Shown here: piece after piece, positions 16,959-59,252 of the stretch | How the letters are laid out: the number at the start of each line of letters is the position of its first letter | Numbering within the stretch: the stretch's first letter is position 1 | Assembly: GCA_021791245.1 (NCBI GenBank) | Contig: JAJYWY010000003.1 | Coordinates: 1 to 62,446 of the forward strand | Reading direction: 5' to 3' | Length of the DNA: 62,446 bases | Source of the DNA: Candidatus Micrarchaeota archaeon | GTDB lineage: Archaea; Micrarchaeota; Micrarchaeia; Micrarchaeales; CABMGC01 | Notes under the pieces: generated by a model | Database searches by the model: none | What the model was told of the DNA's origin: nothing | What the model saw: the letters and a program-made list of their open reading frames with translations, nothing else | Made by a program: the position numbers and the translations under genes

Positions 16959-17029
16959 GGAGGCATAGTCTAGTGGCAGGATAGCAGATTGACATTCTGC
17001 AGACAGGAGTTCGATTCTCCTTGCCTCCA
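16959..17029 (+). tRNA. tRNA-Val(GAC)
   Basis: Acceptor GGAGGCA/TGCCTCC. The D arm is GTCT-AGTGGCA-GGAT with two G-U pairs. Anticodon stem GCAGA/TCTGC with loop TTGACAT (anticodon GAC). T arm AGGAG-TTCGATT-CTCCT. Discriminator A; no encoded CCA. Confidence 0.85.
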
Positions 17030-41930: not shown

Positions 41931-44261
41931 TCAGTCGCACTTGCTATATCCGCACTCCTTGCAGTATATGCATCCGTTCTCGTTTACTAGGCTTTCCTCG
42001 TGGCACTTGGGGCATGTCGAGATGCCGATGGTCTTGTAATCAGAATCTGATGCCTGCCTTGCATTCCTATGCTGTTCTGCTTTTAGCGGTTCGGGCTTTG
42101 CATCTGCAAGCGTCATCTGCTGACTCTTGCCTATCATAGCTTCTACGGCCTTTGCTATAGCATCTGGAACGCTCAGCAGTTTCATCCCGTTGTCCCATGA
42201 TACATTATTGCCTTGTATGCCTTTCAGCTTCTGCACTACCATATTCGGATCTCCGTCATGCTGGAGATACAGGCTTATAAGCTTGCCAAGCGCCTCGCAG
42301 TAGCTCTTATCCTCATACCCTGACTTCCCTATGTTTATGAATACTTCGCGTAGGCCTTTGTCATCGCTGTTTGTTGTGACATATATTGATTCATCCACAA
42401 GGTTCATCCTGACAGTCTGGCCCATCATTACATTTGGCCTTCTGTAAACCTTTTCTGCCTGCGGAAGCGGACTCTCATTCTTCTCAAGCTCCTTCGCCTT
42501 CTCTTCGGTAAGAAGCACGCTTTCGCGCGAATTGTCCCTGTATATGGAGATGCTTTTGCATCCTGCTTTCCATGCCTGCATGTAAATGTTCGCGACTTCC
42601 TCTACTGTGGTGCTCTCTGGAAGGTTGACTGTTGATGATATTGCGCTGTCTATGTGCTTCTGTATTACTGCCTGCATATTAACCCTGAAATCAGGCTTTA
42701 TCTTATGTGCGGGAACGAAAAATTCTGGCAATTCATCCTCGGACTTAAGGCCGAACTTCTTCATGTATTCCATCACTGTAGGATGGTATATCTTGAAGAA
42801 CTCTTTAGAGAGCGATTCCGATCTTCTGGTATAGCTGAAAGCGAATATGGGCTCAATCCCGCTTGACGTGCCTGCCAGCACGGAGCCGCTGCCCACAGGG
42901 GCTATTGTTAGTATTGCCACGTTCCTAAGCCCATTCTTCTTTATCTTTGCCTTTAGGTCATCGCTAAGATTCTTTATGAAAGGCATGGACAGGTGCTTCT
43001 CGGAGTCAAAGAGCGGAAATTGCCCTTTTTCCTCTGATATATTCGTACTTTCGTCATATGCCCAGGTTTTCATCCTATCCATAAACTGGTCTACGAACTT
43101 GAGCGCCTCTTCGCTGTCATATTTTATGCCCAACATGACAAGCATATCTCCAAGGGCAGTGAAGCCAAGGCCTATCCTTCTGCTGTTCCTGCTTGCCTCG
43201 GTTTGCTCTTTTAGCGGATGCTTTTCCATGTTATATGTAAGCACGTTATCAAGGAATCGCGCCCCATACCTAATTGTAGTCTCAAGGTCTTTCCAATTTA
43301 CCTCGGCTTTTTCTGAAAATGGGTTATTTACGAACTTCTTTAGGTTGACATGGCCAAGGTCGCAGGCGTTATAAGGGTCGAGCGGCTGTTCAGAGCATGG
43401 ATTAGTAGTCAGAACATTCATCCCATTGTACTCGCTAGGCGAATATTTCCTTATGTTGTCCCAAAACATTATCCCAGGCTCTGCCCAGTCCCTTGCAGAA
43501 GTAACGAGCTCCTTCCACAGTTCCCTGGCTTTGACTGTACGTTCTATCTTGCCAGCATCCGGGCTCTCGTACCTTAGTGTGAAGTCCTTATCGTCTTCCA
43601 CCGCTTTCATGAATTCATCTGTCACTTTCACGCTTATGTTCGCGAACCTTACGCTCTTCAGGTTTCTCTTTACCTTTATGAATTCGAAAATATCTGGATG
43701 GTCAACACTTATGGTTATCATCAGCGCCCCTCTTCTGCCCGCCTGGCCTATTATCCCTGTTGTTTGGCTCATTATCTCCATGAAAGAAACAGCCCCGGTA
43801 GAATACATTGATGAGTTGTGGACAGGAGCCATTCTTGGCCTAAGTATCGATATGTCTCCGCCGACTCCTCCGCTGTAGCTGTATGTCTTCGCCGCTTCCT
43901 TGCACCACTGGAAGATGCCCTCTATAGAATCCTCCTTTATTGGTATCACATAGCAATTGAGCAAAGTTACCTTCCTCTTCGGCTGCCCTGCGCCGAACAT
44001 TATCCTGCCTCCAGGTATGAACTTGAATCCTTCTAATACAGAATAGAATTTTTCAGCCCATTCCTTCTTCTTGGCTTCGTTCTGTTCTACTCCCGCTATT
44101 TCTCTTGAAATCCTTCTCCACATCTCGTCCGGGGTCTTTTCAAGCTTGTTCCCATGTACATCCCTGAGCGTGTACTTCTCATAGAACACTCTAGCCCTCA
44201 GCTCGTCTCCGCCAAAAAAATCCAATGTTTCCTTAGGTATCTCCACAACTTCATCTTTCAT
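41931..44261 (-). CDS. nrdJ: class II (adenosylcobalamin-dependent) ribonucleoside-triphosphate/diphosphate reductase with C-terminal zinc ribbon
   Basis: Contains TNPCSEQPLDPYNACDLGHVNL (active-site Cys/Glu), GGVGGDISILRP and IAPVGSGS. The C-terminus is CPKCHEESLVNENGCIYCKECGYSKC. I placed the start at ATG 44261 (MKDEVVEIPK) so it does not overlap the nrdR stop. Confidence 0.9.
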   Translation of the reverse strand: MKDEVVEIPKETLDFFGGDELRARVFYEKYTLRDVHGNKLEKTPDEMWRRISREIAGVEQNEAKKKEWAEKFYSVLEGFKFIPGGRIMFGAGQPKRKVTLLNCYVIPIKEDSIEGIFQWCKEAAKTYSYSGGVGGDISILRPRMAPVHNSSMYSTGAVSFMEIMSQTTGIIGQAGRRGALMITISVDHPDIFEFIKVKRNLKSVRFANISVKVTDEFMKAVEDDKDFTLRYESPDAGKIERTVKARELWKELVTSARDWAEPGIMFWDNIRKYSPSEYNGMNVLTTNPCSEQPLDPYNACDLGHVNLKKFVNNPFSEKAEVNWKDLETTIRYGARFLDNVLTYNMEKHPLKEQTEASRNSRRIGLGFTALGDMLVMLGIKYDSEEALKFVDQFMDRMKTWAYDESTNISEEKGQFPLFDSEKHLSMPFIKNLSDDLKAKIKKNGLRNVAILTIAPVGSGSVLAGTSSGIEPIFAFSYTRRSESLSKEFFKIYHPTVMEYMKKFGLKSEDELPEFFVPAHKIKPDFRVNMQAVIQKHIDSAISSTVNLPESTTVEEVANIYMQAWKAGCKSISIYRDNSRESVLLTEEKAKELEKNESPLPQAEKVYRRPNVMMGQTVRMNLVDESIYVTTNSDDKGLREVFINIGKSGYEDKSYCEALGKLISLYLQHDGDPNMVVQKLKGIQGNNVSWDNGMKLLSVPDAIAKAVEAMIGKSQQMTLADAKPEPLKAEQHRNARQASDSDYKTIGISTCPKCHEESLVNENGCIYCKECGYSKCD

Positions 44262-44277
44262 ATAGTCACCGCAAACA

Positions 44278-44763
44278 TCATTTCTTTTTATTTCCTCCGG
44301 CTTTCTTCTTTCCATCCCTGCCCTTGAAGAGGGACAATGCCTTTATGAACTCTTCCGGAGATCCGAAATCGTTGTATACGCTGGCAAACCTTATATATGC
44401 CACAGGGTCGAGCTTCAGCAGCTCTTTCATAGCCATATTGCCTATTATTTTGCTTGATACCTCATTGTCTCCTTCCGCCTTTATCCTAAGCTCGACCTTG
44501 TCAGCTATGCGCTCTATTTCCTCTCTTCCTACCGGTCTCTTTTCGCAGGCTTTCGCAAGACCTATGATAAGCTTGCTCCTGTCGAAAAGTTCCCTTTTTT
44601 TGTCTTTCTTTATCACTGTTATGTTAGAGCTGCCTATCCTTTCGTATGTGGTGAATCTCTTTTTGCATTTCACGCACTGGCGCCTTCTCCTTATGCTCTC
44701 GCTGTCAACATCCCTTGAATCTATGACTTGGATGCTTTCCGAAGAACAAAAAGGGCAATTCAT
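44278..44763 (-). CDS. nrdR: NrdR-family transcriptional repressor (zinc ribbon + ATP-cone)
   Basis: MNCPFCSSESIQVIDSRDVDSESIRRRRQCVKCKKRFTTYERI is a near-textbook NrdR N-terminus. An ATP-cone follows (ITVIKKDKKRELFDRSKLIIGL...). It lies directly upstream of nrdJ. Confidence 0.9.
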   Translation of the reverse strand: MNCPFCSSESIQVIDSRDVDSESIRRRRQCVKCKKRFTTYERIGSSNITVIKKDKKRELFDRSKLIIGLAKACEKRPVGREEIERIADKVELRIKAEGDNEVSSKIIGNMAMKELLKLDPVAYIRFASVYNDFGSPEEFIKALSLFKGRDGKKKAGGNKKK

Positions 44764-44767
44764 AAAA

Positions 44768-44783
44768 ACACAACATATAGTGG
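44768..44783. promoter_or_regulatory. candidate NrdR box
   Basis: ACACAACATATAGTGG matches 14 of 16 positions of the bacterial NrdR-box consensus acaCwAtATaTwGtgt. It lies 5 nt upstream of the nrdR ATG. I did not find a convincing second box. Confidence 0.4.
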
Positions 44784-44869
44784 ATAAGCGTGGTCGCTTA
44801 AACAACACGTAGTATAATTATGGTATGGTTATAAAAACCCGAAAACATTGGATTTGATATTTAAGTATA

Positions 44870-45986: not shown

Positions 45987-46066
45987 TTTGTCGGAATAAT
46001 CAAAAACTGTCGTATTTATGACTTTTGGGTCTAAGTTTGTCGGAATAATGCCTTTAAACCGACAAA
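45987..46066. promoter_or_regulatory. direct + inverted repeat cluster upstream of the T4SS-like operon (operator-like)
   Basis: TTTGTCGGAATAAT occurs at 45987-46000 and again at 46036-46049. Its inverted partner CCGACAAA lies at 46059-46066, giving an 8-bp stem with 46036-46043 and a 15-nt loop. The two direct copies fall in different reading frames of the local mini-ORFs, so conservation is at the DNA/RNA level. Confidence 0.55.
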
Positions 46067-46112
46067 GCCGCCTTTTAGTTTATGTATCGAAATATTTAAA
46101 TATTTAATAGGG

Positions 46113-46125
46113 TATAAATTATATA
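46113..46125 (+). promoter_or_regulatory. TATA-box-like element for the 46147 operon
   Basis: tataaattatata lies 22-34 nt upstream of ATG 46147. This is the spacing seen for other leaderless-looking genes in the window. Confidence 0.4.
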
Positions 46126-46146: not shown

Positions 46147-46533
46147 ATGAGTATATATAAAAACCTGCAAAAATCCGGATTTGCATTGCCTGTAGCCTTT
46201 ATGCTGCTTCCGGTTATGACGAACGGTCTTTTTGGCATGCTATTCGCACATAGCAATTACTTCTTGTTTAACAGCCTTGTAGATTCCTTAAGCAGCATTC
46301 AGACGCTGCTATCCCAAATAGGCCCAATAATCAGCGGAGTGCTATTCATAGTTGCGGGCATAATGTATTCAATAGGCCAGCTTTTAACTCCGGAGAAGAA
46401 AGCGCAATTCCATACCACTTCAATAAACATAATAATAGGCGCCATAATAGTCGCTGTGCTTTCCGTGACTTCGAATTCGTTTGCATTCGCTTCCGCACAT
46501 CTACTCTCAAACCTGACTATAAACGCAACTTAA
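46147..46533 (+). CDS. small membrane protein, VirB2/TrbC-like (CedA1/TedC-like) candidate pilin
   Basis: 128 aa. There is an N-terminal signal-like TM (FALPVAFMLLPVMTNGLFGMLFA). Two hydrophobic helices follow (IGPIISGVLFIVAGIMYSIGQLL and INIIIGAIIVAVLSVTS), joined by a short basic loop (TPEKKAQ). This is the helix-loop-helix layout of conjugative pilins. Confidence 0.5.
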   Translation: MSIYKNLQKSGFALPVAFMLLPVMTNGLFGMLFAHSNYFLFNSLVDSLSSIQTLLSQIGPIISGVLFIVAGIMYSIGQLLTPEKKAQFHTTSINIIIGAIIVAVLSVTSNSFAFASAHLLSNLTINAT

Positions 46534-46544
46534 TAGGTAGCACT

Positions 46545-47594
46545 ATGGAAGTTATGCCTTTCGGAAAATATGGGTTTGGTATAGGTATTACCGTAATAAG
46601 CATAATGCTTCTCATAGGCGGCATAATACTTGGGGTTGGATACGCGCTTGACGATAAGAAGTTCAAGGATTTTGGGAAACAGGAAATATATCAGAGTATC
46701 GTCAATGGGGTTATTCTTGGTTCGCTGATCTTATTGTTCCTTCCGAACGGCATCATATCCGATATTGTAAATTATGCGGTATCCTCAAATAACGCCTCGT
46801 ATTCATGTCCTGGGTTTATGGCACAGAATTCCGGGATCTGCTTCGCATACAACTATCTCGTTGGTACGGCGCAGTATAAGTTCAACAGCATAAGCTATCC
46901 ATCGCTTTCTGAGATTACGGGTTCCATGCTCGCAAGTTTTTCTGCGCTTGCAATCTTTCTAGGCATCATATCCGGCACAACGATAAACCTGATTGTTGTA
47001 TCGTTTTCTCCAAGCAGCATGATAATGCCTTTTCTTCATCAGGTGCAATACATAATCGAGATACTTTCAGCCTCGCTCATAGGCATATATGTGCAGGCTT
47101 CAATACTTTCCTTTGTGGCAATAACTGCAATATCAGTGCTTCTGCCATTGGGCATAATTCTAAGAACGTTTTTCCCGACTAGGAAGCTTGGAGGTTTCAT
47201 AATGGCAGTTGCGATAGCCCTTTACGTGGTCTTCCCGCTGTCTTATCTTATTGACGCGACTCTAATGCAATCCTATTATTCCCAATATAGCCAGAATTCA
47301 TTCCAGCAAATAGAAGTTCAGGCTCAATCCCTGAATTCCCAATATCTGGGTTCAATTCCGTCAAGCGTTAATTCCACATCATTCAATGTAGCAGACATCT
47401 CTGGAGCAGCTTCGTCATTGTTGAATTCCCTGGCCAATATTATGCAATCGCTGCTCTTCCTCCTCTCTGGGCTTATAGTGCAGATATTCATACTTCCGGT
47501 ATTCAGCATAGTTCTAACAGGGATATCAATAAAGGAACTTTCAGGGATACTCGGAGCTGAGGCATCTTTCGGCAAGCTCAGAATCTTCACGTGA
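46545..47594 (+). CDS. polytopic membrane protein, VirB6/TrbL-like (CedA-like) candidate
   Basis: 349 aa with about 6-7 TM segments, a Cys-containing extracellular loop and a Ser/Gln-rich loop. The assignment rests on position after the VirB2-like gene and on topology only. Confidence 0.4.
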   Translation: MEVMPFGKYGFGIGITVISIMLLIGGIILGVGYALDDKKFKDFGKQEIYQSIVNGVILGSLILLFLPNGIISDIVNYAVSSNNASYSCPGFMAQNSGICFAYNYLVGTAQYKFNSISYPSLSEITGSMLASFSALAIFLGIISGTTINLIVVSFSPSSMIMPFLHQVQYIIEILSASLIGIYVQASILSFVAITAISVLLPLGIILRTFFPTRKLGGFIMAVAIALYVVFPLSYLIDATLMQSYYSQYSQNSFQQIEVQAQSLNSQYLGSIPSSVNSTSFNVADISGAASSLLNSLANIMQSLLFLLSGLIVQIFILPVFSIVLTGISIKELSGILGAEASFGKLRIFT

Positions 47595-47598
47595 TCGG

Positions 47599-48324
47599 AT
47601 GGAAGGGTATAATCATTATAAGTTGACCAATTACGCCTATTCGTATGCAGTGTATGCTGGCTTTGCCCTACTCATTATTCTCTCGGCAGTATATTCAAGC
47701 ATCCTGCTTTTGGCGCTTTCCGCGTTTTTATTATTTGCGTCTGTGTTTGTGCTTAGATACGGGCATATATTCAATTCTTTCCTTACAAACAAAATGAAGA
47801 TATTAGAGGTCTCTTCTGGATATTCGCTTGGAAAAAGGGGATTTTCTGCGGTAAAGAAGATAGGAACTTCGTATTATGGAATATCCATAGCGTCATTGAA
47901 AGTTACTACTGGAGTAAACGCAGGGAGCAGAATAATAACGGAGGCCATAGAAAAGATACGGATACAGTTTGAATTCAGTGTAAGGCTGGAGAGAATAGAC
48001 CTAAAGAAGCTTCTCAATGGCTTAGAGACGAGAAGGAGGATAAAGGAGATAGAGCTTTCAAAAATCGGGGCAAAAGACTATGACAAGGCGAACAGGCTAA
48101 AGCGCGAGATAGGCATTGTAGAGAGCGAGATACAAAGCATAACATGCGGAAATACGCCCATGTCGGCCATGCTGCTGCTGAAATGCGCATCCGTATGCAA
48201 AAGCAGCGAAGAGGCGCAAATGCTGCCTTACAAAAACCTGCAGGAGCTTTGCACGCTTTTCGCTTCTTCATTCAACTTCGACTACATTATATTGAAAGGG
48301 GAGGATTTGCTTGAATTACTATGA
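47599..48324 (+). CDS. 2-TM (VirB3-like) + VirB4 N-terminal-domain-like protein
   Basis: The N-terminal hairpin is YAVYAGFALLIILSAVYSSILLLALSAFLLFASVFVL. A soluble domain follows (GTSYYGISIASLKVT...FEFSVRLERIDLKKLLNGLETRRRIKE...MSAMLLLKCASVCKSSEEAQ) that resembles the VirB4/TrbE N-terminal domain layout. Confidence 0.45.
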   Translation: MEGYNHYKLTNYAYSYAVYAGFALLIILSAVYSSILLLALSAFLLFASVFVLRYGHIFNSFLTNKMKILEVSSGYSLGKRGFSAVKKIGTSYYGISIASLKVTTGVNAGSRIITEAIEKIRIQFEFSVRLERIDLKKLLNGLETRRRIKEIELSKIGAKDYDKANRLKREIGIVESEIQSITCGNTPMSAMLLLKCASVCKSSEEAQMLPYKNLQELCTLFASSFNFDYIILKGEDLLELL

Positions 48325-49393
48325 GATGTGGAATAGAATAAACTCTAATGAAGCTTCTAGCCTTCTGGAGATATATGCGCCTGATGACTTGCAGGAAAGC
48401 ATATACACAAGCGAAAACGGAATATATGCCGGAAAGTCTATGCGGCAGTATATACCGGTTTTCATGGACCAGAGTGCAACAATAAATCCGCATATGTTCA
48501 TAGCAGGGATAACTGGAAGCGGAAAGAGCTTTGCCTTAAGAAACATAATAACAAGAATGTCCGCAGTTCTTGGCTATGGCGCTATAATAATAGACTTGAC
48601 TGGCGAATTCAAGGGCATGGCTGAGGACGCCGGAAATATAGATGTTTCCAGGAGCACTTCGTATTTCGGATTATTCAAGATCAGGGACGAGGAGAAGAGA
48701 ATACTGCGTGCGGAAGAGATTCTATGCGAGGTAATAAGGCAGATGAGAATGCTTGAGCCTGATTCCAATATAAAGTCTTTTGTAATTTTTGACGAGGCTT
48801 GGAAAATACTTGGAAAGAACAAGCAATTTGAGACGCTGATCAGAGAAGGCAGGAAGTACGGGATAGGAGTGATAATATCGTCGCAGAGCCTGCTCGACTT
48901 AGATCGCGAGATGCTGGAGAACATAGGCAGCCTCCTTATCTTCAAACTGACGGATGATGTATCTCTATCATTGCTGGCCAGCAGTTATGGCTTAAGCAGA
49001 GTGCAGATTGACAACTTGAAAAATCTTGAGGTTGGGAGATGCATGCTCCTAAGGTCATATAAGTCTAGGAGGAAATCGTGCGTCTTCATAAGCAGGTTTG
49101 AACAGGTGAATGCAAAAGAGGTTTTAAGGATAATTTTGAGGGATCGCATGGACATGGAAATAGAAGAAGAGAAATTCCTGGGGTTCTTGAAATCCCTTGG
49201 CATAGCAAGAGATAGGATGGAAAAGATAAATGAAATCGTTGAGAACAGGCCTATTGCCCTAGACGTGCTTGTATCCGAACTGATTCTGGTTGATGTTGAC
49301 AAGAGAAAGGTACTCTATGGATTAAGGTCGCTCGGAATGGCAGACGATGATATAGCAGACACATTCGCTATTGCTGCAGGCAGATTGCTATGA
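48311..49393 (+). CDS. VirB4/TrbE/CedB-like P-loop ATPase (C-terminal motor domain)
   Basis: Walker A is FIAGITGSGKSFALRNII. It contains GAIIIDLTGEF, Walker B FVIFDEAWKILG (the DEAW typical of VirB4) and REGRKYGIGVIISSQSLLDLD. The TTG start is preceded by GGGGAGGA (48297-48304). Confidence 0.7.
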   Translation: MNYYEMWNRINSNEASSLLEIYAPDDLQESIYTSENGIYAGKSMRQYIPVFMDQSATINPHMFIAGITGSGKSFALRNIITRMSAVLGYGAIIIDLTGEFKGMAEDAGNIDVSRSTSYFGLFKIRDEEKRILRAEEILCEVIRQMRMLEPDSNIKSFVIFDEAWKILGKNKQFETLIREGRKYGIGVIISSQSLLDLDREMLENIGSLLIFKLTDDVSLSLLASSYGLSRVQIDNLKNLEVGRCMLLRSYKSRRKSCVFISRFEQVNAKEVLRIILRDRMDMEIEEEKFLGFLKSLGIARDRMEKINEIVENRPIALDVLVSELILVDVDKRKVLYGLRSLGMADDDIADTFAIAAGRLL

Positions 49394-50067
49394 AACAAAA
49401 GACAATGCAAAAATATTTGATAATGAGAATGCCTCTGCAATGTAAGCTGCTTGTGCCGCTTTCAATAGTAAAGAAAAGGCTTTCCAATTACCCTAATATG
49501 GAATTGATTAGAGAAGGGACTAGCCTCACGTATTCATTTTTGGAAAATAATGACAATGCCGAATTTTGCATTATTCTGTCAAAGAACTCGATAATCATGA
49601 ATATACGCGCCAATATTACTCCTGTCCGTTATGAGAAGGACGCTGTTTTAAGGCTTGTAAGCATTGTCATGATACTCGACGGTTTTTACCATATAGAAGC
49701 CAGAAATATGCTTCCTTATATGGTTTCTACGCTTGCCAGGCACAATGTAGAATATTACGCTGAAAAGGCGCGAAGGATGCAATTAGATGAAGAAACGAGT
49801 ATTAAAGGAACCGAGATCATACTATCCAAGAGGATACTGGGGTTAATGTCTGAAATTTCCTCGAAAACTGAAATGCTTTCACATTCAAATAAGAAATTCG
49901 ATGATTTGGTAGAGAAAATAGTCGATATTGAATGCAGTTATGGGCCATTTTCAATCGAAGAAATATGCTTGAAGTATGGATTAAGCGCAAATGACGTAAA
50001 GGCGCACACCGAGGCAAAAACTAATTGCGGCGCATCGCGGCAAGGCAAGCCCTTTCTCCAAAGGTGA
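49390..50067 (+). CDS. hypothetical soluble protein (operon member)
   Basis: 225-aa ORF. The ATGA start/stop overlap with the upstream ATPase gene indicates translational coupling. Confidence 0.5.
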   Translation: MKQKTMQKYLIMRMPLQCKLLVPLSIVKKRLSNYPNMELIREGTSLTYSFLENNDNAEFCIILSKNSIIMNIRANITPVRYEKDAVLRLVSIVMILDGFYHIEARNMLPYMVSTLARHNVEYYAEKARRMQLDEETSIKGTEIILSKRILGLMSEISSKTEMLSHSNKKFDDLVEKIVDIECSYGPFSIEEICLKYGLSANDVKAHTEAKTNCGASRQGKPFLQR

Positions 50068-50071
50068 AAAA

Positions 50072-50530
50072 ATGAGTTCGCAGGTTCTTGATTATGCATA
50101 TAGCTTCATACCCATAGCCGCAGGAATTGCATTAATGTACATTCTTGGCAGATTCAATCCATTAAAGAAGCATGTGCAGCTTGTCTGCAATAATGATTGG
50201 CATGGAGCGCATATTAAAGATTGTACAGACCAAAATCCCAAACCAGACATGCGGCTTTCGGTTACCCGGGATTTATTGATATGCAATGGCATAAAATGCA
50301 TTGGCAATGAGGCACAGCAGAAAAGGGAGGGATTTGAGCGCTTGGGAATATGCACTCCGTCAGAGTTCACGTCGATGATAGGCAGGTGCAGCCCAGATTT
50401 TGAATATCTCAGGCCGTTGATGTACAAGGACACGATGTTTGACGGCCTTCTGTACAGGTTCTGCAGTGAATCTGGGACAGTTCTGCTCTTTCTAGCACAG
50501 TATAAGCTAGATCCCGTGGTGATCGGGTGA
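50072..50530 (+). CDS. N-terminally anchored Cys-rich protein (operon member)
   Basis: The TM segment is YSFIPIAAGIALMYILG, and there are 9 Cys in the ectodomain. GGTGA SD-like motif lies 5 nt upstream. Confidence 0.5.
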   Translation: MSSQVLDYAYSFIPIAAGIALMYILGRFNPLKKHVQLVCNNDWHGAHIKDCTDQNPKPDMRLSVTRDLLICNGIKCIGNEAQQKREGFERLGICTPSEFTSMIGRCSPDFEYLRPLMYKDTMFDGLLYRFCSESGTVLLFLAQYKLDPVVIG

Positions 50531-50736
50531 ACTTTATATCGATGTTTGCATTTGAAGTTGCTGTTATTAGCTCCGCGTACACGAGTACAGGATTTTCGCT
50601 ATTGATAATCGGCAGGCTGAGGTCAAAAGGCGATGGCAATAAACGGATAGGCGCAGCTGTAAGAATAGGTGCATTGCTTTTTTTCTCGTCCGCGCTCTTT
50701 TACTCGTGGTTGAATGCAAATCCAAGAATTCTATAA
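50527..50736 (+). CDS. small 2-TM membrane protein (operon member)
   Basis: 69 aa. The GTG start overlaps the previous stop (GTGA) and is preceded by GGTGATC. Confidence 0.45.
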   Translation: MNFISMFAFEVAVISSAYTSTGFSLLIIGRLRSKGDGNKRIGAAVRIGALLFFSSALFYSWLNANPRIL

Positions 50737-50995
50737 ATTTAATAGGTGTTTTTCCGTGTCGGGCGTGAACACAATAGCTTCGCTTTCGGTCTCAAGCGCG
50801 CTGGCCAACGCGTTCCTGCTTATAACAGGAAATGCATTGCTGGGCATTGCGATCTTATTGGCATCGCTTACACTGCTTATTTATCTTTCAAAAATGACAA
50901 ACGCATCGATGATAAATACTTCGGATAGCGTTGCGTACCTGTCCATGGCGAATCTTTTGTTCTCTATGGTATCGATCTTGTGGTGGTTAAGATGA
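50714..50995 (+). CDS. small 3-TM membrane protein (operon member)
   Basis: 93-aa ORF. The true start may be GTG 50756 (VSGVNTIASL...). Confidence 0.45.
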   Translation: MQIQEFYKFNRCFSVSGVNTIASLSVSSALANAFLLITGNALLGIAILLASLTLLIYLSKMTNASMINTSDSVAYLSMANLLFSMVSILWWLR

Positions 50996-53193
50996 ACAAC
51001 GCAACATTGTTTAAGATTACTTCAATACCTGCGCCGTTAGATGCAAAATTTTTCGTTGAGAGCTTCCTTGGCAATTCTTTTGCGATTTATCACGACATAA
51101 AAAATGGCGGGACATATCTTGTAATGGATGACGTACAAAAAGCGCGTTTGTGCTCCGCAATGCCGGGAATTTCCATGGATAACGCTTCTTCCATAGAAGA
51201 ATTCGGGAATCCTTCAATTTTTGTTTTTTATACGATGCCAGAATCACATGCAGATAAGCGTGAAGCAAAACCGCAACTATTTTCAGATGCCTATAAAATT
51301 TTTAAAAATGCGGAAATGAATTTCTGCGTCTCTTTCCTTCCGATAAAAAAGGAAAATGTAGACGCGCTAAAAGACAGGCTGCAGAAAAACCTCAGCACAA
51401 AAGACATTAGGCAGACAAAGACTAAAAATGAGAAGACTGTAGCGTATTCCCTTACAGAATCCGTACATTCCGATTTATATTACGAATCCGAGGAGAAGAG
51501 GCTAAATGAATCCCTGCTCGGCAACATAGAAGACATAATACTCTCAAATTACTCCGGTTATAAAGCATTTATAATAGCCGAGGATAACCAGGAATTTTCC
51601 GCTTACCTGAAGTCAAAAGTCGTATTGGTAGACACGATAAAAACCATGGAGAATGATATTGTAAAAATTCTCGGAACCCTGGAGGATAAGAATTCTATTC
51701 CGATTTCATACGGCGTATGCGCGGGATTGGTATCATTCTCGCCAATGATAGAGAACAAGGAGATAGTCGATACTCAGCGCCCCAGCAATACTGGAGGAAT
51801 TAGCCTTGGAGGATTTATGGAAGGAGGGGTTGCAGAGCAAAACTATGAAGCACACATGGATGAAAGCGCACTAAATTTAGGCACCATAATAAGCGGGCTC
51901 CCAGGATGCGGCAAGACTGCGTTGTCAATGCTCGTTTGCAGACAGCTGCTGGAAAAGCCGGATGGCAGAACAAAGGTGATTGTAATCTCGCCAACCGAAG
52001 AATGGAATGGCATAGGCCGCCATTTTGGGCTTAGTATAATAAAGCCGTATGCATCAAATAAGAAGATAAATTTTTTCAGATGCTGCTCACGCCTCAATAT
52101 AGAGAAGTTCTATGAAAACCTTGCAATGCTGCTTGCCGCAGCTTCAAACGTTGGCCCTTACAAGGACTCGCTGGAAAAGTGCCTGCTCGCAGCATTTAGA
52201 AGAGTGTATGAAGATGCCAGGGATCCTGACCCGCTAGAGGTATACGAGGAGATAGAGGAGGCGGTCATAGAGCAACATGGAAAGAGAACAAACGTGGGGG
52301 TAAAATACACAAAACATGGAGAAAATATAAGGGCAGGTTTGGAAAACCTGAGATTGCTGCTCTTTAGACCGGAATTTTCGTGCAGGGAGGGCATTGATTT
52401 TGCCGAACTTATGGAAGGATCTGTATTTGATCTTTCTTGCGTAAGCAACGAGATGAAGCCGTTCTTTTATTCGCTGATATTGAATCAAATATACAGTTTC
52501 ACAGAAACATTCAACAACAATGGGGACTCTGAACTCAGGCTGCTGCTTTGCCTTGAGGAAGCTCAACTTATATTCAAGCAGGATAGCAAAATGTATCAAT
52601 CTGCGCCGACTGCGGATTTGAAGCAGAAGATACAGGATTTCAGGAAAAAAGGCATAGGGCTGATGCTCATAACGCACAACATAATGGATATAGACCAGAA
52701 TATAAGGAGGCTCTGCCAGAACAAGATATATTTCAGGCAGTCTGCGGATATAGTAAATTATGCGCTTATGGATCTTGGCTTTTACAGAGACGACGAAAGA
52801 ATCTTCTCAAGATTGAAATCTTTGGAGAATAGGGTCTGCGTCTTAACGTACGTGGAAAAGATAAACGGCATGGCGAGAGTAATTGGGCCTACTTTCCTTA
52901 AAACTCGCAATTATACTGCACCGACTGCAAATTATGATGCGGAAGACGGATATGAAAACAGCACGATAGTGATGCAGGTTAAAATAAATGCAAAAAAGGA
53001 AATTGGCCAGATTCATGCAAAGATAACCTATCTGGGAGAGGTGATATTCAAGAGTAAAGACGTTGGAAGTTGCATTAGCGTAAGGAACATAATTCCTGGG
53101 AGAAAATACAGACTATTAATTACAAACGAAAAAGGAAAAGCGCAGAAGGCGATTACCATTGTGGGAAATGAAGAGATTGCCATAGACGTATAA
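50992..53193 (+). CDS. HerA/FtsK-superfamily ATPase (second motor; T4SS coupling-protein-like role proposed)
   Basis: Walker A is IISGLPGCGKTALSML. It contains VIVISPTEEW, Walker B LLLCLEEAQLIF and KKGIGLMLITHNIMDIDQNI. There is a ~290-aa N-terminal non-TM domain and a beta-rich C-terminal domain. ATG 50992 overlaps the previous stop (ATGA) and follows GGTGG. Confidence 0.65.
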   Translation: MNNATLFKITSIPAPLDAKFFVESFLGNSFAIYHDIKNGGTYLVMDDVQKARLCSAMPGISMDNASSIEEFGNPSIFVFYTMPESHADKREAKPQLFSDAYKIFKNAEMNFCVSFLPIKKENVDALKDRLQKNLSTKDIRQTKTKNEKTVAYSLTESVHSDLYYESEEKRLNESLLGNIEDIILSNYSGYKAFIIAEDNQEFSAYLKSKVVLVDTIKTMENDIVKILGTLEDKNSIPISYGVCAGLVSFSPMIENKEIVDTQRPSNTGGISLGGFMEGGVAEQNYEAHMDESALNLGTIISGLPGCGKTALSMLVCRQLLEKPDGRTKVIVISPTEEWNGIGRHFGLSIIKPYASNKKINFFRCCSRLNIEKFYENLAMLLAAASNVGPYKDSLEKCLLAAFRRVYEDARDPDPLEVYEEIEEAVIEQHGKRTNVGVKYTKHGENIRAGLENLRLLLFRPEFSCREGIDFAELMEGSVFDLSCVSNEMKPFFYSLILNQIYSFTETFNNNGDSELRLLLCLEEAQLIFKQDSKMYQSAPTADLKQKIQDFRKKGIGLMLITHNIMDIDQNIRRLCQNKIYFRQSADIVNYALMDLGFYRDDERIFSRLKSLENRVCVLTYVEKINGMARVIGPTFLKTRNYTAPTANYDAEDGYENSTIVMQVKINAKKEIGQIHAKITYLGEVIFKSKDVGSCISVRNIIPGRKYRLLITNEKGKAQKAITIVGNEEIAIDV

Positions 53194-57803: not shown

Positions 57804-59252
57804 TTATGCAGAATACGAAACTACGCAGCTTGGGTAGCCATTCGCAACCGGCATATTGCTTGTTGGCTGCCATGTTTCGAGTGCGCCTGAACTTAGTATT
57901 GGAGAATAGTATACAGAATTGACGTTTCCGCTTCCATCGTTTCCGCCTATGCAGTATATGTTATTGTACGCGCTTACACAACTATTCCCCCAAACCGTTA
58001 TTGGATAGCTGTTTGTAGCCTGCCACTGGCCTATGTTGCCCCCTGAGATTGGCGCATAATATGCATAATCATAGGTAGTTGAACCTGAGCCTATGTAATT
58101 GTTCCCGCCTATGCAGTATATGTTTCCATTGGAGGCAGCGCAAGGATTGTTGTTTTCCCCAATTGGCACAGGATATGCGTTTGCAGCAATCCACGCACCT
58201 ATGCCGCCGCTTGACAAAGACGCATAATATACGGAATTTATGCCAGGCACTCCTGAATTTCCTCCAATGCAGTATATGTATCCGCCGTAATTAGCGCAAG
58301 CCTCGCTGGCTGCTGCTTTTGGATAATTTCCGGCAAACGACCATTGCACAGCCCCGGAGCTTGAAATAGGCGCATAATATGCGGCGTTGGCAAATATTCC
58401 ATATCTTTGCCCTGCAACACAGAAGAAATAGCCATTCTGCGTAGTGCATGATTGATAACCGTCTTCCAGCGGATAATTGGCTGTATATTCCCATGCGCCG
58501 AGCCCTGAATGCGATATGCTTGCGTAATATACCGTGTTAGAATATGTATATGGGCTGCCCTGGCCGTTATTGCCTCCTGAGCAATAAATGTATCCTTCGG
58601 AAACAACGCATGGCATTGCTAAATCATTTATCGGATATGGGGTTGTTGACTTCCATGAGGTTATCCCTGATTGCGAAATATACGAATAATATACGCTGTC
58701 CGAGAGTCCGGAAGAAGATCCGCCAACGCAATACACTTCTGGAAGCAATGATTGCGAAGGAGTAGATGTTGCAAAGAAAGAACCAGTAAAAGTTGCGTTC
58801 TCGTTTGATGAAGTGCAATGGGGCAGCATATTTACGCCTGCGCTGCACAGCTGCGCCTTTATCGAATACACGCCTCTTGCTAGAATATAGTCGTTTATAA
58901 CTACGTTTAGCTCTGATGTGCATATTGCCGCCTGCCCCGGATAAAGCAAATCCCTGTCGCATGAACCGGTAGTGAGGGAAGACCCTGTACCTATCCCTGC
59001 AGAGAAGCCGGTTATGTTAATAGGAGCATCCTGCGAATTGGAAAGCAATACGCTGATTGTTGTGGCCGTGGCATTTGCATACACTTCTACATTTTGGCAG
59101 TTCATTCCTCCGAATGAGGTGCAGCTTGGCTGGATCTCATTTTTAGGAACATTAAAGTAAAATATTATAGCAACTATGATGATGCCTATTATGACGAATA
59201 CAAATCCGTAGACGGTCATGAATTCTATTGCAGTCTGCGCTTTATGATCCAT
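57804..59252 (-). CDS. class III signal peptide (pilin-like) protein with six Kelch-like beta-propeller repeats
   Basis: The N-terminus is MDHKAQTAIEFMTVYGFVFVIIGIIIVAIIFYF. Six ~47-aa units carry the core VYYA(S/P)IS.SG...W......YP.......C.....G.IYCIGGN. Confidence 0.7.
   Translation of the reverse strand: MDHKAQTAIEFMTVYGFVFVIIGIIIVAIIFYFNVPKNEIQPSCTSFGGMNCQNVEVYANATATTISVLLSNSQDAPINITGFSAGIGTGSSLTTGSCDRDLLYPGQAAICTSELNVVINDYILARGVYSIKAQLCSAGVNMLPHCTSSNENATFTGSFFATSTPSQSLLPEVYCVGGSSSGLSDSVYYSYISQSGITSWKSTTPYPINDLAMPCVVSEGYIYCSGGNNGQGSPYTYSNTVYYASISHSGLGAWEYTANYPLEDGYQSCTTQNGYFFCVAGQRYGIFANAAYYAPISSSGAVQWSFAGNYPKAAASEACANYGGYIYCIGGNSGVPGINSVYYASLSSGGIGAWIAANAYPVPIGENNNPCAASNGNIYCIGGNNYIGSGSTTYDYAYYAPISGGNIGQWQATNSYPITVWGNSCVSAYNNIYCIGGNDGSGNVNSVYYSPILSSGALETWQPTSNMPVANGYPSCVVSYSA

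Follow-up and report, generated by a model that had tools for sequence, protein, structure and literature searches.

The Ced and Ted machines of Crenarchaeota are derivatives of type IV secretion systems (T4SSs), built from VirB2, VirB6 and VirB4 homologues and lacking a relaxase (PMC9905601). Ced employs a pair of related ATPases with N-domains that match parts of the one in VirB4 (PMC11868833). In bacteria, the ultrasmall Patescibacteria possess a T4SS that also lacks a relaxase and, according to a review, is essential to epibiotic growth and may form a pilus (PMC12857230); pilins of this group were found with the Pfam family PF18895 (PMC12102498). A T4SS review of December 2025 gives as archaeal systems only those of crenarchaea and of Thermococcus plasmids. 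Here we analyse a nine-gene operon (g1–g9, positions 46147–53193) from a DPANN archaeon, Candidatus Micrarchaeota archaeon (assembly GCA_021791245.1, contig JAJYWY010000003.1); the window, to whose forward strand its coordinates refer, is the whole stretch of 62,446 nucleotides under analysis. On balance, we read the operon as a domesticated, chromosomal, T4SS-derived envelope machine of the Ced/Ted kind, with a VirB2-type pilus and probably moving DNA.

Among about 8 million full texts (coverage incomplete), none that we found connects Micrarchaeota with Ced, T4SS or VirB components, and a 2025 study of 163 Micrarchaeota genomes makes no mention of secretion, pili, VirB or HerA. Most public records annotate the gene families of the cluster as 'hypothetical protein'. 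The only public hints are automatic names on a few homologues, either 'DNA import protein CedB' or 'type IV secretory system conjugative DNA transfer family protein', together with the VirB4-like domain of giant nanohaloarchaeal proteins (PMC10266531).

Gene content and comparison with known systems

The four leading genes encode a VirB2/TrbC-type pilin precursor (g1, 46147–46533, 128 aa), a polytopic membrane protein that occupies the VirB6/CedA position and may be the channel or platform (g2, 46545–47594, 349 aa), a VirB3-like two-transmembrane (TM) hairpin joined to a predicted cytoplasmic fold resembling the VirB4 N-terminal domain (g3, 47599–48324, 241 aa) and a P-loop ATPase domain of the CedB/VirB4/HerA clade, the putative motor (g4, 48311–49393, 360 aa from a TTG start, with an alternative ATG at 48326). 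The T4SS-derived reading follows from this combination of VirB2-type pilin, polytopic protein, anchored VirB4 N-domain-like fold and VirB4/CedB-like motor in overlapping or abutting genes. Every T4SS component specific to double membranes is missing from the cluster, as is a relaxase, the pattern seen in Ced and Ted. The initial annotation had proposed a chromosomal, non-mobile, minimal T4SS or Ced/Ted-like machine in a DPANN archaeon, and this proposal withstood comparison with both a HerA–NurA or defence origin of the ATPases and a recent insertion of the cluster.

Likeness to Ted (TedA, TedB and TedC of Thermoproteales; Beltran et al. 2023, PMC9905601) is drawn here from the published description rather than from Ted sequences. 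Both systems are archaeal, chromosomal and relaxase-free, serve a single membrane, and combine a VirB2-like pilin bearing an N-terminal signal peptide (predicted in g1) with a polytopic membrane protein encoded next to the pilin gene and a VirB4-like ATPase; an extra HerA-like helicase is present at some Ted loci. Whereas TedB is a full-length VirB4-like protein, VirB4 appears split into g3 and g4 in Micrarchaeota, and the Micrarchaeota ATPase domain scores nearer to CedB and HerA than to canonical VirB4. Further differences are the lack of detectable VirB6-type similarity in g2, the additional conserved genes g5–g8 and the phylum itself (DPANN Micrarchaeota, mesophilic or acidophilic symbionts).

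Comparison with Ced (CedA, CedA1, CedA2, CedB, CedD and CedE of Sulfolobales) was made through NCBIfam models and published descriptions rather than direct comparison of Ced sequences. Shared features are two ATPases of the same clade, the lack of a relaxase, N-domains related to that of VirB4 and small two-TM membrane proteins beside the polytopic one, and the best curated family for g4 is CedB, followed by CedD. However, g4 is not a CedB orthologue (65 bits against a cutoff of 700), and CedB and CedD carry their own TM segment and N-domain, which here lie on the separate polypeptide g3. Unlike the unprocessed pilin of Ced, g1 carries a predicted signal peptide, and g7 and g8 are not similar to the pilin g1. 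Given the CedB score, the split VirB4, a g2 unlike known channels and the new families g5–g8, the Micrarchaeota system would be Ced/Ted-like in its working but is a member of neither.

The T4SS of Patescibacteria (candidate phyla radiation) shares with the operon a setting in ultrasmall, host-dependent, single-membrane organisms, a chromosomal location, phylum-wide occurrence, the absence of a relaxase and pilins of the PF18895/TrbC type. That system is bacterial and derived from the mating-pair-formation class MPF-FATA, with recognizable VirB1, VirB3, full-length VirB4, VirB6, VirB8 and VirD4, whereas VirB1, VirB6, VirB8 and VirD4 are all unrecognizable in the Micrarchaeota cluster. With the canonical VirB/Trw T4SS of the plasmid R388 (PDB 7o42 and 8rtd), similarity extends to the soluble domain of g3 (structurally like TrwK/VirB4), to g4 (like the C-terminal ATPase domain of TrwK) and, weakly, to g1 (TrwL/VirB2). 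In contrast to R388, the cluster has no outer-membrane complex, VirB5, VirB8–11, TM-bearing coupling protein or relaxase, and g2, which is not TrwI-like, sits between the pilin gene and the VirB3/4 genes. The SPEARE-type proteins of Nanohaloarchaeota (PMC10266531) are another DPANN case of VirB4-family ATPases proposed for host interaction but differ wholly, being giant Ig-repeat surface proteins with a fused VirB4/TraG-like domain and without a pilin/g2/g3/g5 module.

g1 belongs to the VirB2/TrbC-type pilins

The VirB2/TrbC pilin layout initially assigned to the first gene is borne out by Pfam, in which g1 matches T4SS_pilin (PF18895) with 30 bits against a gathering cutoff of 26.6 (E = 5e-7) and, weakly, TrbC/VirB2. 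Scanning 46 orthologues recovered T4SS_pilin in 19 and TrbC/VirB2 in 20 (E < 0.01). The family alignment (A2) displays a variable, signal-peptide-like N terminus, usually ending in an AxA-like motif, then two highly conserved hydrophobic helices separated by a short basic loop (P..KRA.FH). An N-x-S/T sequon is invariant at the C terminus of the family (46490–46530 of the window reads LLSNLTINAT) and suggests that this end of the protein is extracellular and N-glycosylated. Over the helix–loop–helix, hhalign detects a weak similarity between the g1 profile and R388 TrwL (P 2.4e-4, probability 43%). By Pfam membership and predicted topology, g1 is a VirB2/TrbC-type pilin.

g3 and g4 resemble a divided VirB3–VirB4

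The AlphaFold model of g3, built on 96 sequences, has a mean predicted local distance difference test (pLDDT) of 91.5 and consists of two TM helices (residues 3–32 and 35–65) followed by an alpha/beta domain. Searching about 350,000 PDB chains with Foldseek, the top 12 matches are all TrwK/VirB4 of R388 (E 3e-4 to 0.07, probability 0.8–1.0, about 160 aligned columns in the best), and the next match is unrelated (E 0.13). The match list contains no HerA, FtsK, TrwB or other RecA-like ATPase, nor the C-domain-only VirB4 structure 4ag5, and g3 is without Walker motifs; we therefore infer from the model that the aligned region is the VirB4-specific N-terminal domain. As in VirB3–VirB4 fusions, the hairpin directly precedes this domain; it has no sequence similarity to TrwM. 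The earlier description of g3 as a two-TM hairpin fused to a VirB4 N-domain-like region has thus received structural confirmation. The family comprises around 125 representatives of ~240 aa in exhaustive HMMER searches, with no sequence relatives beyond it, profile searches of PDB sequences included.

Pfam matches of g4 are AAA_10, DUF87 and TrwB_AAD_bind. CedB is the best NCBIfam match in all 18 of 18 orthologues (best E 5e-27), followed by CedD and HerA, the CedB match covering only the ATPase core (model positions 249–317 and onward). VirB4_CagE is matched by 15 of 18 orthologues, and VirB4_CagE, TraC, TrbE and CD1110 by between 8 and 18 of the 18, all far below cutoffs; the CedB and HerA models score as well as or better than the VirB4-type models. 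A profile search of the PDB retrieves HerA and VirB4, and hhalign pairs g4 with the C-terminal ATPase domain of TrwK (probability 64%). The profile also weakly resembles viral packaging ATPases (B204 of Sulfolobus turreted icosahedral virus, STIV) and a PHROG terminase family. Membership of the CedB/VirB4/HerA superfamily is clear from these comparisons, with no narrower clade assigned. The catalytic residues are invariant (Walker residues G66, G69, G71 and K72, and D161/E162; alignment A1), and the ATPase looks active from its intact motifs. Beyond the core, g4 has a conserved helical C-terminal extension of ~90 aa and no N-terminal domain of its own.

Since g3 supplies a hairpin and an N-domain-like fold and g4 an ATPase domain without an N-domain, the two look, in the models, like the parts of a VirB3–VirB4 fusion carried on separate polypeptides. 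We also considered g3 as the detached N terminus of the longer (480–520 aa) Micrarchaeota ATPases, to which it shows no similarity by phmmer or hhalign. The long ATPases align end to end with g4, differing by internal insertions, and their loci carry a g3 of their own.

g2 is a candidate membrane channel or platform

The AlphaFold model of g2 (mean pLDDT 77.7, predicted template-modelling score 0.71) contains three helices of 50–60 residues besides a TM hairpin and an extracytoplasmic loop, in which two cysteines (C88 and C99) are invariant. A profile search against PDB sequences found nothing. Homology between the g2 N terminus and the pilin, of the kind reported for CedA/CedA1, was rejected (hhalign probability 4%). 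Of the initial assignment to VirB6/TrbL or CedA, the gene position and polytopic topology stand, but homology could be found neither by sequence, nor by profile, nor by Foldseek; we retain g2 as a candidate channel or platform from position and topology.

Conservation across Micrarchaeota

Profile scanning of one genome per GTDB species yielded 107 related stretches, of which 80 were retained, nearly all titled Micrarchaeota, Micrarchaeia or Micrarchaeales; gene order was counted by iterative hidden Markov model searches over all retained loci. The order g1-g2-g3-g4-g5-g6 is found in ~75 of these 80 species-representative genomes, with g2 always adjoining g1 and g3, and such recurrence in other species-level genomes puts the arrangement far beyond chance. 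About half of the clusters (~40/80) continue into g9. Flanking housekeeping genes vary from genome to genome. Three contigs inspected by hand have gene sizes of 125/335/243/372/227/158/60/89 aa, each among different housekeeping neighbours, and a gene of ~700 aa follows in some and not in others.

Homologues of the g4 ATPase are almost exclusively from Micrarchaeota and fall into two groups, one full-length (~365 aa) and one variant (~480–520 aa). Divergent lineages (Anstonellaceae and Ca. Bilamarchaeum) retain some or all of g2, g3, a long g4 and g5, and g1 is not detectable in them; g2-g3-g4-g5 therefore looks like the conserved core. Most variant clusters retain g5, including the four loci L083–L086. 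One of these, L085 (8–6995), has five tandem g2 paralogues and two g3 paralogues ahead of the long ATPase and g5, a marked expansion of the putative channel component. Another, L086 (Ca. Bilamarchaeum dharawalense, GCA_902386555.1), has an alpha/beta-hydrolase gene between the g3 homologue and the ATPase; NCBI and UniRef name this ATPase 'DNA import protein CedB', and the genome paper is silent on the cluster. Several Micrarchaeota genomes encode a second, long ATPase paralogue (480–575 aa) besides the short-ATPase cluster, sometimes right beside it (L035, 4236–5792, minus strand; L052; L073, 14820–16544; contig CAWBCT010000005.1, which holds L051 plus P0085), and two related systems may coexist in one cell.

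The source organism has been assembled in at least 24 contigs from independent assemblies, with an identical context each time. From this constancy and the spread over ~75 species, we conclude that the cluster is an old trait of the phylum, inherited vertically rather than inserted recently, which answers the question of synteny in related Micrarchaeota that the initial annotation had raised.

Accessory genes

The final gene, g9 (50980–53193), encodes 737 aa from a GTG start, a sequence absent from the protein collection, or 733 aa from an alternative ATG at 50992. Orthologues match DUF87 (25/39), HerA_C (25/39), AAA_10 (16/39) and, partially, TrwB_AAD_bind (8/39). A PDB profile search aligns the ATPase core alone, to HerA (7e-5) and VirB4 (4ag5, 0.003), and hhalign relates g9 to the g4 family with a probability of 97.9%. 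Invariant columns span G306–K312 and E526/E527 (alignment A8), so that the Walker motifs originally quoted for the fourth and last genes are real and occupy invariant positions in both families. The assignment of these genes to a VirB4-type motor and a HerA/FtsK-type ATPase holds at the level of the HerA/VirB4/FtsK superfamily, g4 having CedB as its best family. A unique N-terminal region of ~280 aa precedes the core of g9, the C-terminal region looks β-rich from sequence, and there is no TM segment. Although g9 had been counted in the conserved core as a second ATPase, and is indeed one of the HerA/VirB4 superfamily, its presence in only about half of the related clusters makes it accessory.

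The start of g5 (49390–50067, 225 aa) overlaps the g4 stop (ATGA). The product is predicted to be a cytoplasmic protein with a C-terminal winged-helix or helix-turn-helix (HTH)-like domain: the last ~55 aa give weak, repeated signals of this kind, the family profile matches a DeoR HTH in the PDB (E 0.005) together with other HTH chains, and several different HTH Pfam families are each hit by just 1–5 of 46 orthologues.

The product of g6 (50072–50530, 152 aa) has a single N-terminal TM anchor and is the fastest-evolving of the cluster (24% mean identity in alignment A7), with the TM motif its sole conserved part and no Pfam or PDB relative. The residues following the TM helix are basic, and the remaining domain therefore probably faces the cytoplasm. 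It had been described as an anchored, Cys-rich protein; the anchor is upheld, but the cysteine richness is specific to this organism, none of the seven cysteines being conserved in the family. Rapid evolution of g6 may reflect partner- or lineage-specific adaptation. VirB8- or VirB5-like identities for g6 or g5 were discarded, as neither resembles TrwG or TrwJ.

Two small membrane proteins complete the set. The first, g7 (50527–50736), has two TM segments and 69 aa from a GTG start (64 aa in public calls, which begin at ~50542); 50 loci have a two-TM open reading frame (ORF) of ~65 aa at this position, and a profile of these orthologues ranks g7 best of the nine window proteins (13.6 bits). 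The second, g8 (50714–50995, 93 aa), has two to three TM segments, with a corresponding ORF of ~90 aa in 35 loci whose profile picks out g8 among the nine (21.8 bits). Neither has an NCBIfam match. A minor-pilin identity for g7 and g8 was rejected, given their lack of similarity to g1.

Operon organization

All nine ORFs lie on the plus strand, tightly packed between 46147 and 53193 as first described, and the public annotations of independent assemblies of this organism contain the same set. Consecutive genes are separated by +11, +4, −14, −4, +4, −4, −23 and −16 nt, the range of +11 to −23 reported initially; the alternative ATG starts at 48326 and 50992 turn two of the overlaps into +1 and −4 nt. 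Shine–Dalgarno-like motifs had been claimed for the internal starts, and GTGA, GGTGA or GGAGG sequences do occur 8–11 nt upstream of g1, g3, g4, g6 and g7, but not ahead of g2, g5, g8 or g9.

Upstream of g1, an exact 14-nt direct repeat (TTTGTCGGAATAAT) occurs at 45987–46000 and 46036–46049, with an inverted partner at 46054–46066. An AT-rich, TATA-like palindromic sequence lies at ~46090–46120, ~30 nt ahead of the g1 ATG. These repeats and the TATA-like stretch could form an operator and promoter of the operon, conceivably bound by the HTH-like g5. Bacterial-type promoter and terminator scans gave counts no higher than in shuffled sequence.

A proposed machine and its alternatives

In the machine that we propose, g1 would be exported by the Sec pathway, lose its signal peptide and polymerize into a VirB2-type pilus or short conduit on the cell surface, lipid-associated and probably N-glycosylated. 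A membrane platform or channel in the VirB6/CedA role would be formed by g2 together with g7 and g8. The VirB3-like hairpin of g3 would anchor the motor and its soluble part contribute the VirB4 N-terminal domain, with g4 providing a hexameric VirB4/CedB-like ATPase domain, so that g3 and g4 together would make a membrane-docked motor. Translationally coupled to g4, g5 is likely to be a nucleic-acid or substrate adaptor; g6, g7 and g8 would be lineage-specific membrane accessory subunits; and, in clusters that have it, g9 may serve as an additional translocase or helicase with counterparts in CedD, in coupling proteins or in the HerA-like helicase encoded at Ted loci. DNA appears the likeliest cargo because the nearest characterized relatives of the motor are DNA translocases, g5 is HTH-like and Ced and Ted offer a precedent; it would travel across the envelope, to or from a partner cell that is either the host or kin of the Micrarchaeon, and, as in Ced and Ted, no relaxase would be involved.

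Several results weigh against this explanation. The g1 family profile finds no pilin chain among PDB sequences. For g2, neither the window protein nor 46 orthologues match TrbL/VirB6 in Pfam at E < 0.1, no Pfam or NCBIfam family is recognized, the best PDB match of its model in Foldseek is unrelated (E 0.44) and hhalign against TrwI returns a probability of 0.1%. The likeness of g3 to VirB4 is structural, with no similarity at sequence level, and amounts to one independent protein match with a root-mean-square deviation of ~7 Å and a TM-score of 0.36 over the whole query. Scores of g4 are far below every curated family cutoff, that of the CedB equivalog (NF041017) included; g5 could, on its weak HTH signal, simply be a regulator; and no features specific to VirB8, VirB1 or VirD4 were found in the cluster. 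DNA as the cargo, the direction of its transport, the assembly of the products into a single complex, the formation of a pilus and the channel role of g2 are what we infer for the machine.

A serious alternative, partly overlapping the one just given, is that the same T4SS-like hardware has host interaction as its main job, namely to attach the cell to a Thermoplasmatales-type host and to let proteins, lipids, nucleotides or other metabolites through. The Patescibacteria T4SS would be a parallel, with its reported role in epibiotic growth and its possible pilus; g1 falls in the very Pfam family that was used to find Patescibacteria pilins, the cluster is conserved throughout a host-dependent phylum, and no relaxase is encoded by the cluster or by the 10 flanking genes. 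Pili-like connections and cytoplasmic bridges have been imaged between ARMAN (archaeal Richmond Mine acidophilic nanoorganisms) and Thermoplasmatales, with no molecular assignment (PMC4110969, PMC5864196), although they are largely ascribed to the Thermoplasmatales partner (PMC4110969). The closest characterized families of the motor (CedB, CedD, HerA and conjugative VirB4) are, however, DNA translocases, g5 has its HTH-like domain, and the cluster contains no conserved effector-like or adhesin-like genes. We regard host interaction as the main function as possible but rather doubtful. A related and still tentative proposal, to which we give slightly more credit, is that the operon does for DPANN archaea what the essential T4SS does for Patescibacteria: throughout the phylum, a domesticated pilus and channel of the conjugation type would link the cells to Thermoplasmatales hosts and take up host DNA or other macromolecules.

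A mobile-element identity, with the cluster serving as transfer module of a provirus, of an integrative and conjugative element or of an integrated conjugative plasmid, is largely refuted and very improbable. T4SS genes are typically borne on plasmids or such elements, the chromosomal neighbourhood differs between species, and the weak resemblance of g4 to the STIV and PHROG packaging proteins points the same way, but the flanks consist of housekeeping genes (ribonucleotide reductase, NrdR, RNase HII, LeuRS and an eRF1-family gene), and genes for an integrase, a relaxase, replication or a capsid are absent from the vicinity. The window has two tRNA genes, at 16959 and 39552; the closer one lies 6.5 kb from the cluster and is separated from it by housekeeping genes. 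GC content (0.39–0.45) does not mark the cluster as foreign, and its relative synonymous codon usage correlates with that of other window genes (r = 0.90; the two halves into which those genes were divided give 0.96). Searching 72,556 plasmids by tblastn gave motif-level matches for g4 and none for g2, and 2.9 million viral contigs contained just two distant partial matches. Together with the recurrence in some 75 or more species and the constant context across assemblies, the cluster is non-mobile, with a composition matching its host. Least probable of all is that g4 and g9 derive from HerA-based repair or anti-phage defence (HerA–NurA, HerA–Sir2/DUF4297, MADS or Dnd/Ssp-like), with the membrane genes as unrelated neighbours. 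PADLOC and PDB profile searches do match both ATPases to HerA, mad8 and DndH models, but all of these matches are confined to the shared P-loop core. No NurA, Sir2, nuclease or other effector is among the nine products, and NurA and defence-effector genes are also missing nearby. The 360-aa g4 lacks the HerA N-terminal barrel region, its match beginning at the ATPase core, and the pilin, the membrane genes and the VirB4 N-domain-like g3 overlap or directly adjoin the ATPase genes, which they accompany in ~75 genomes.

The domesticated, Ced/Ted-like machine that we favour would extend relaxase-free 'domesticated conjugation' past Crenarchaeota to a third archaeal setting and give a probable role to eight or nine families that are mostly annotated 'hypothetical protein'. 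Its naturally split VirB3–VirB4 would be useful for studying how the N- and C-domains of VirB4 cooperate. The parallel with the essential, pilin-bearing T4SS of Patescibacteria, the bacterial ultrasmall symbionts, is striking, and the operon is a concrete, conserved and tractable candidate for how DPANN archaea gain host resources and for what builds their cell–cell connections. Were it the DPANN counterpart of that T4SS, it would explain in molecular terms at least a part of the pili-like or 'synapse-like' connections that cryo-electron tomography has revealed, and ultrasmall symbionts of both prokaryotic domains would have independently recruited T4SS machinery for host-dependent life.

Genomic neighbourhood

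The initial annotation placed the operon between genes for RNase HII and leucyl-tRNA synthetase (LeuRS). Both are present, with the correction that a small PRC-barrel gene also lies on the RNase HII side. The upstream flank reads inositol monophosphatase, class II ribonucleotide reductase, an NrdR-like gene, RNase HII and the PRC-barrel protein, and the downstream flank LeuRS, a VTT/DedA protein and an eRF1-family protein. The reported absence of relaxase and integrase genes is confirmed for the cluster products and the 10 flanking genes scanned with Pfam.

The NrdR-like gene (44278–44808, minus strand) encodes a Zn_ribbon_NrdR plus an ATP-cone and overlaps the start of the class II ribonucleotide reductase gene (41931–44315, minus strand) by 38 nt. 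NrdR is mainly a bacterial regulator, and the archaeon may have acquired the gene horizontally. Downstream, a few genes beyond the operon, 57804–59252 (minus strand) encodes a 482-aa protein with Kelch-type β-propeller repeats that score below the Pfam cutoff.

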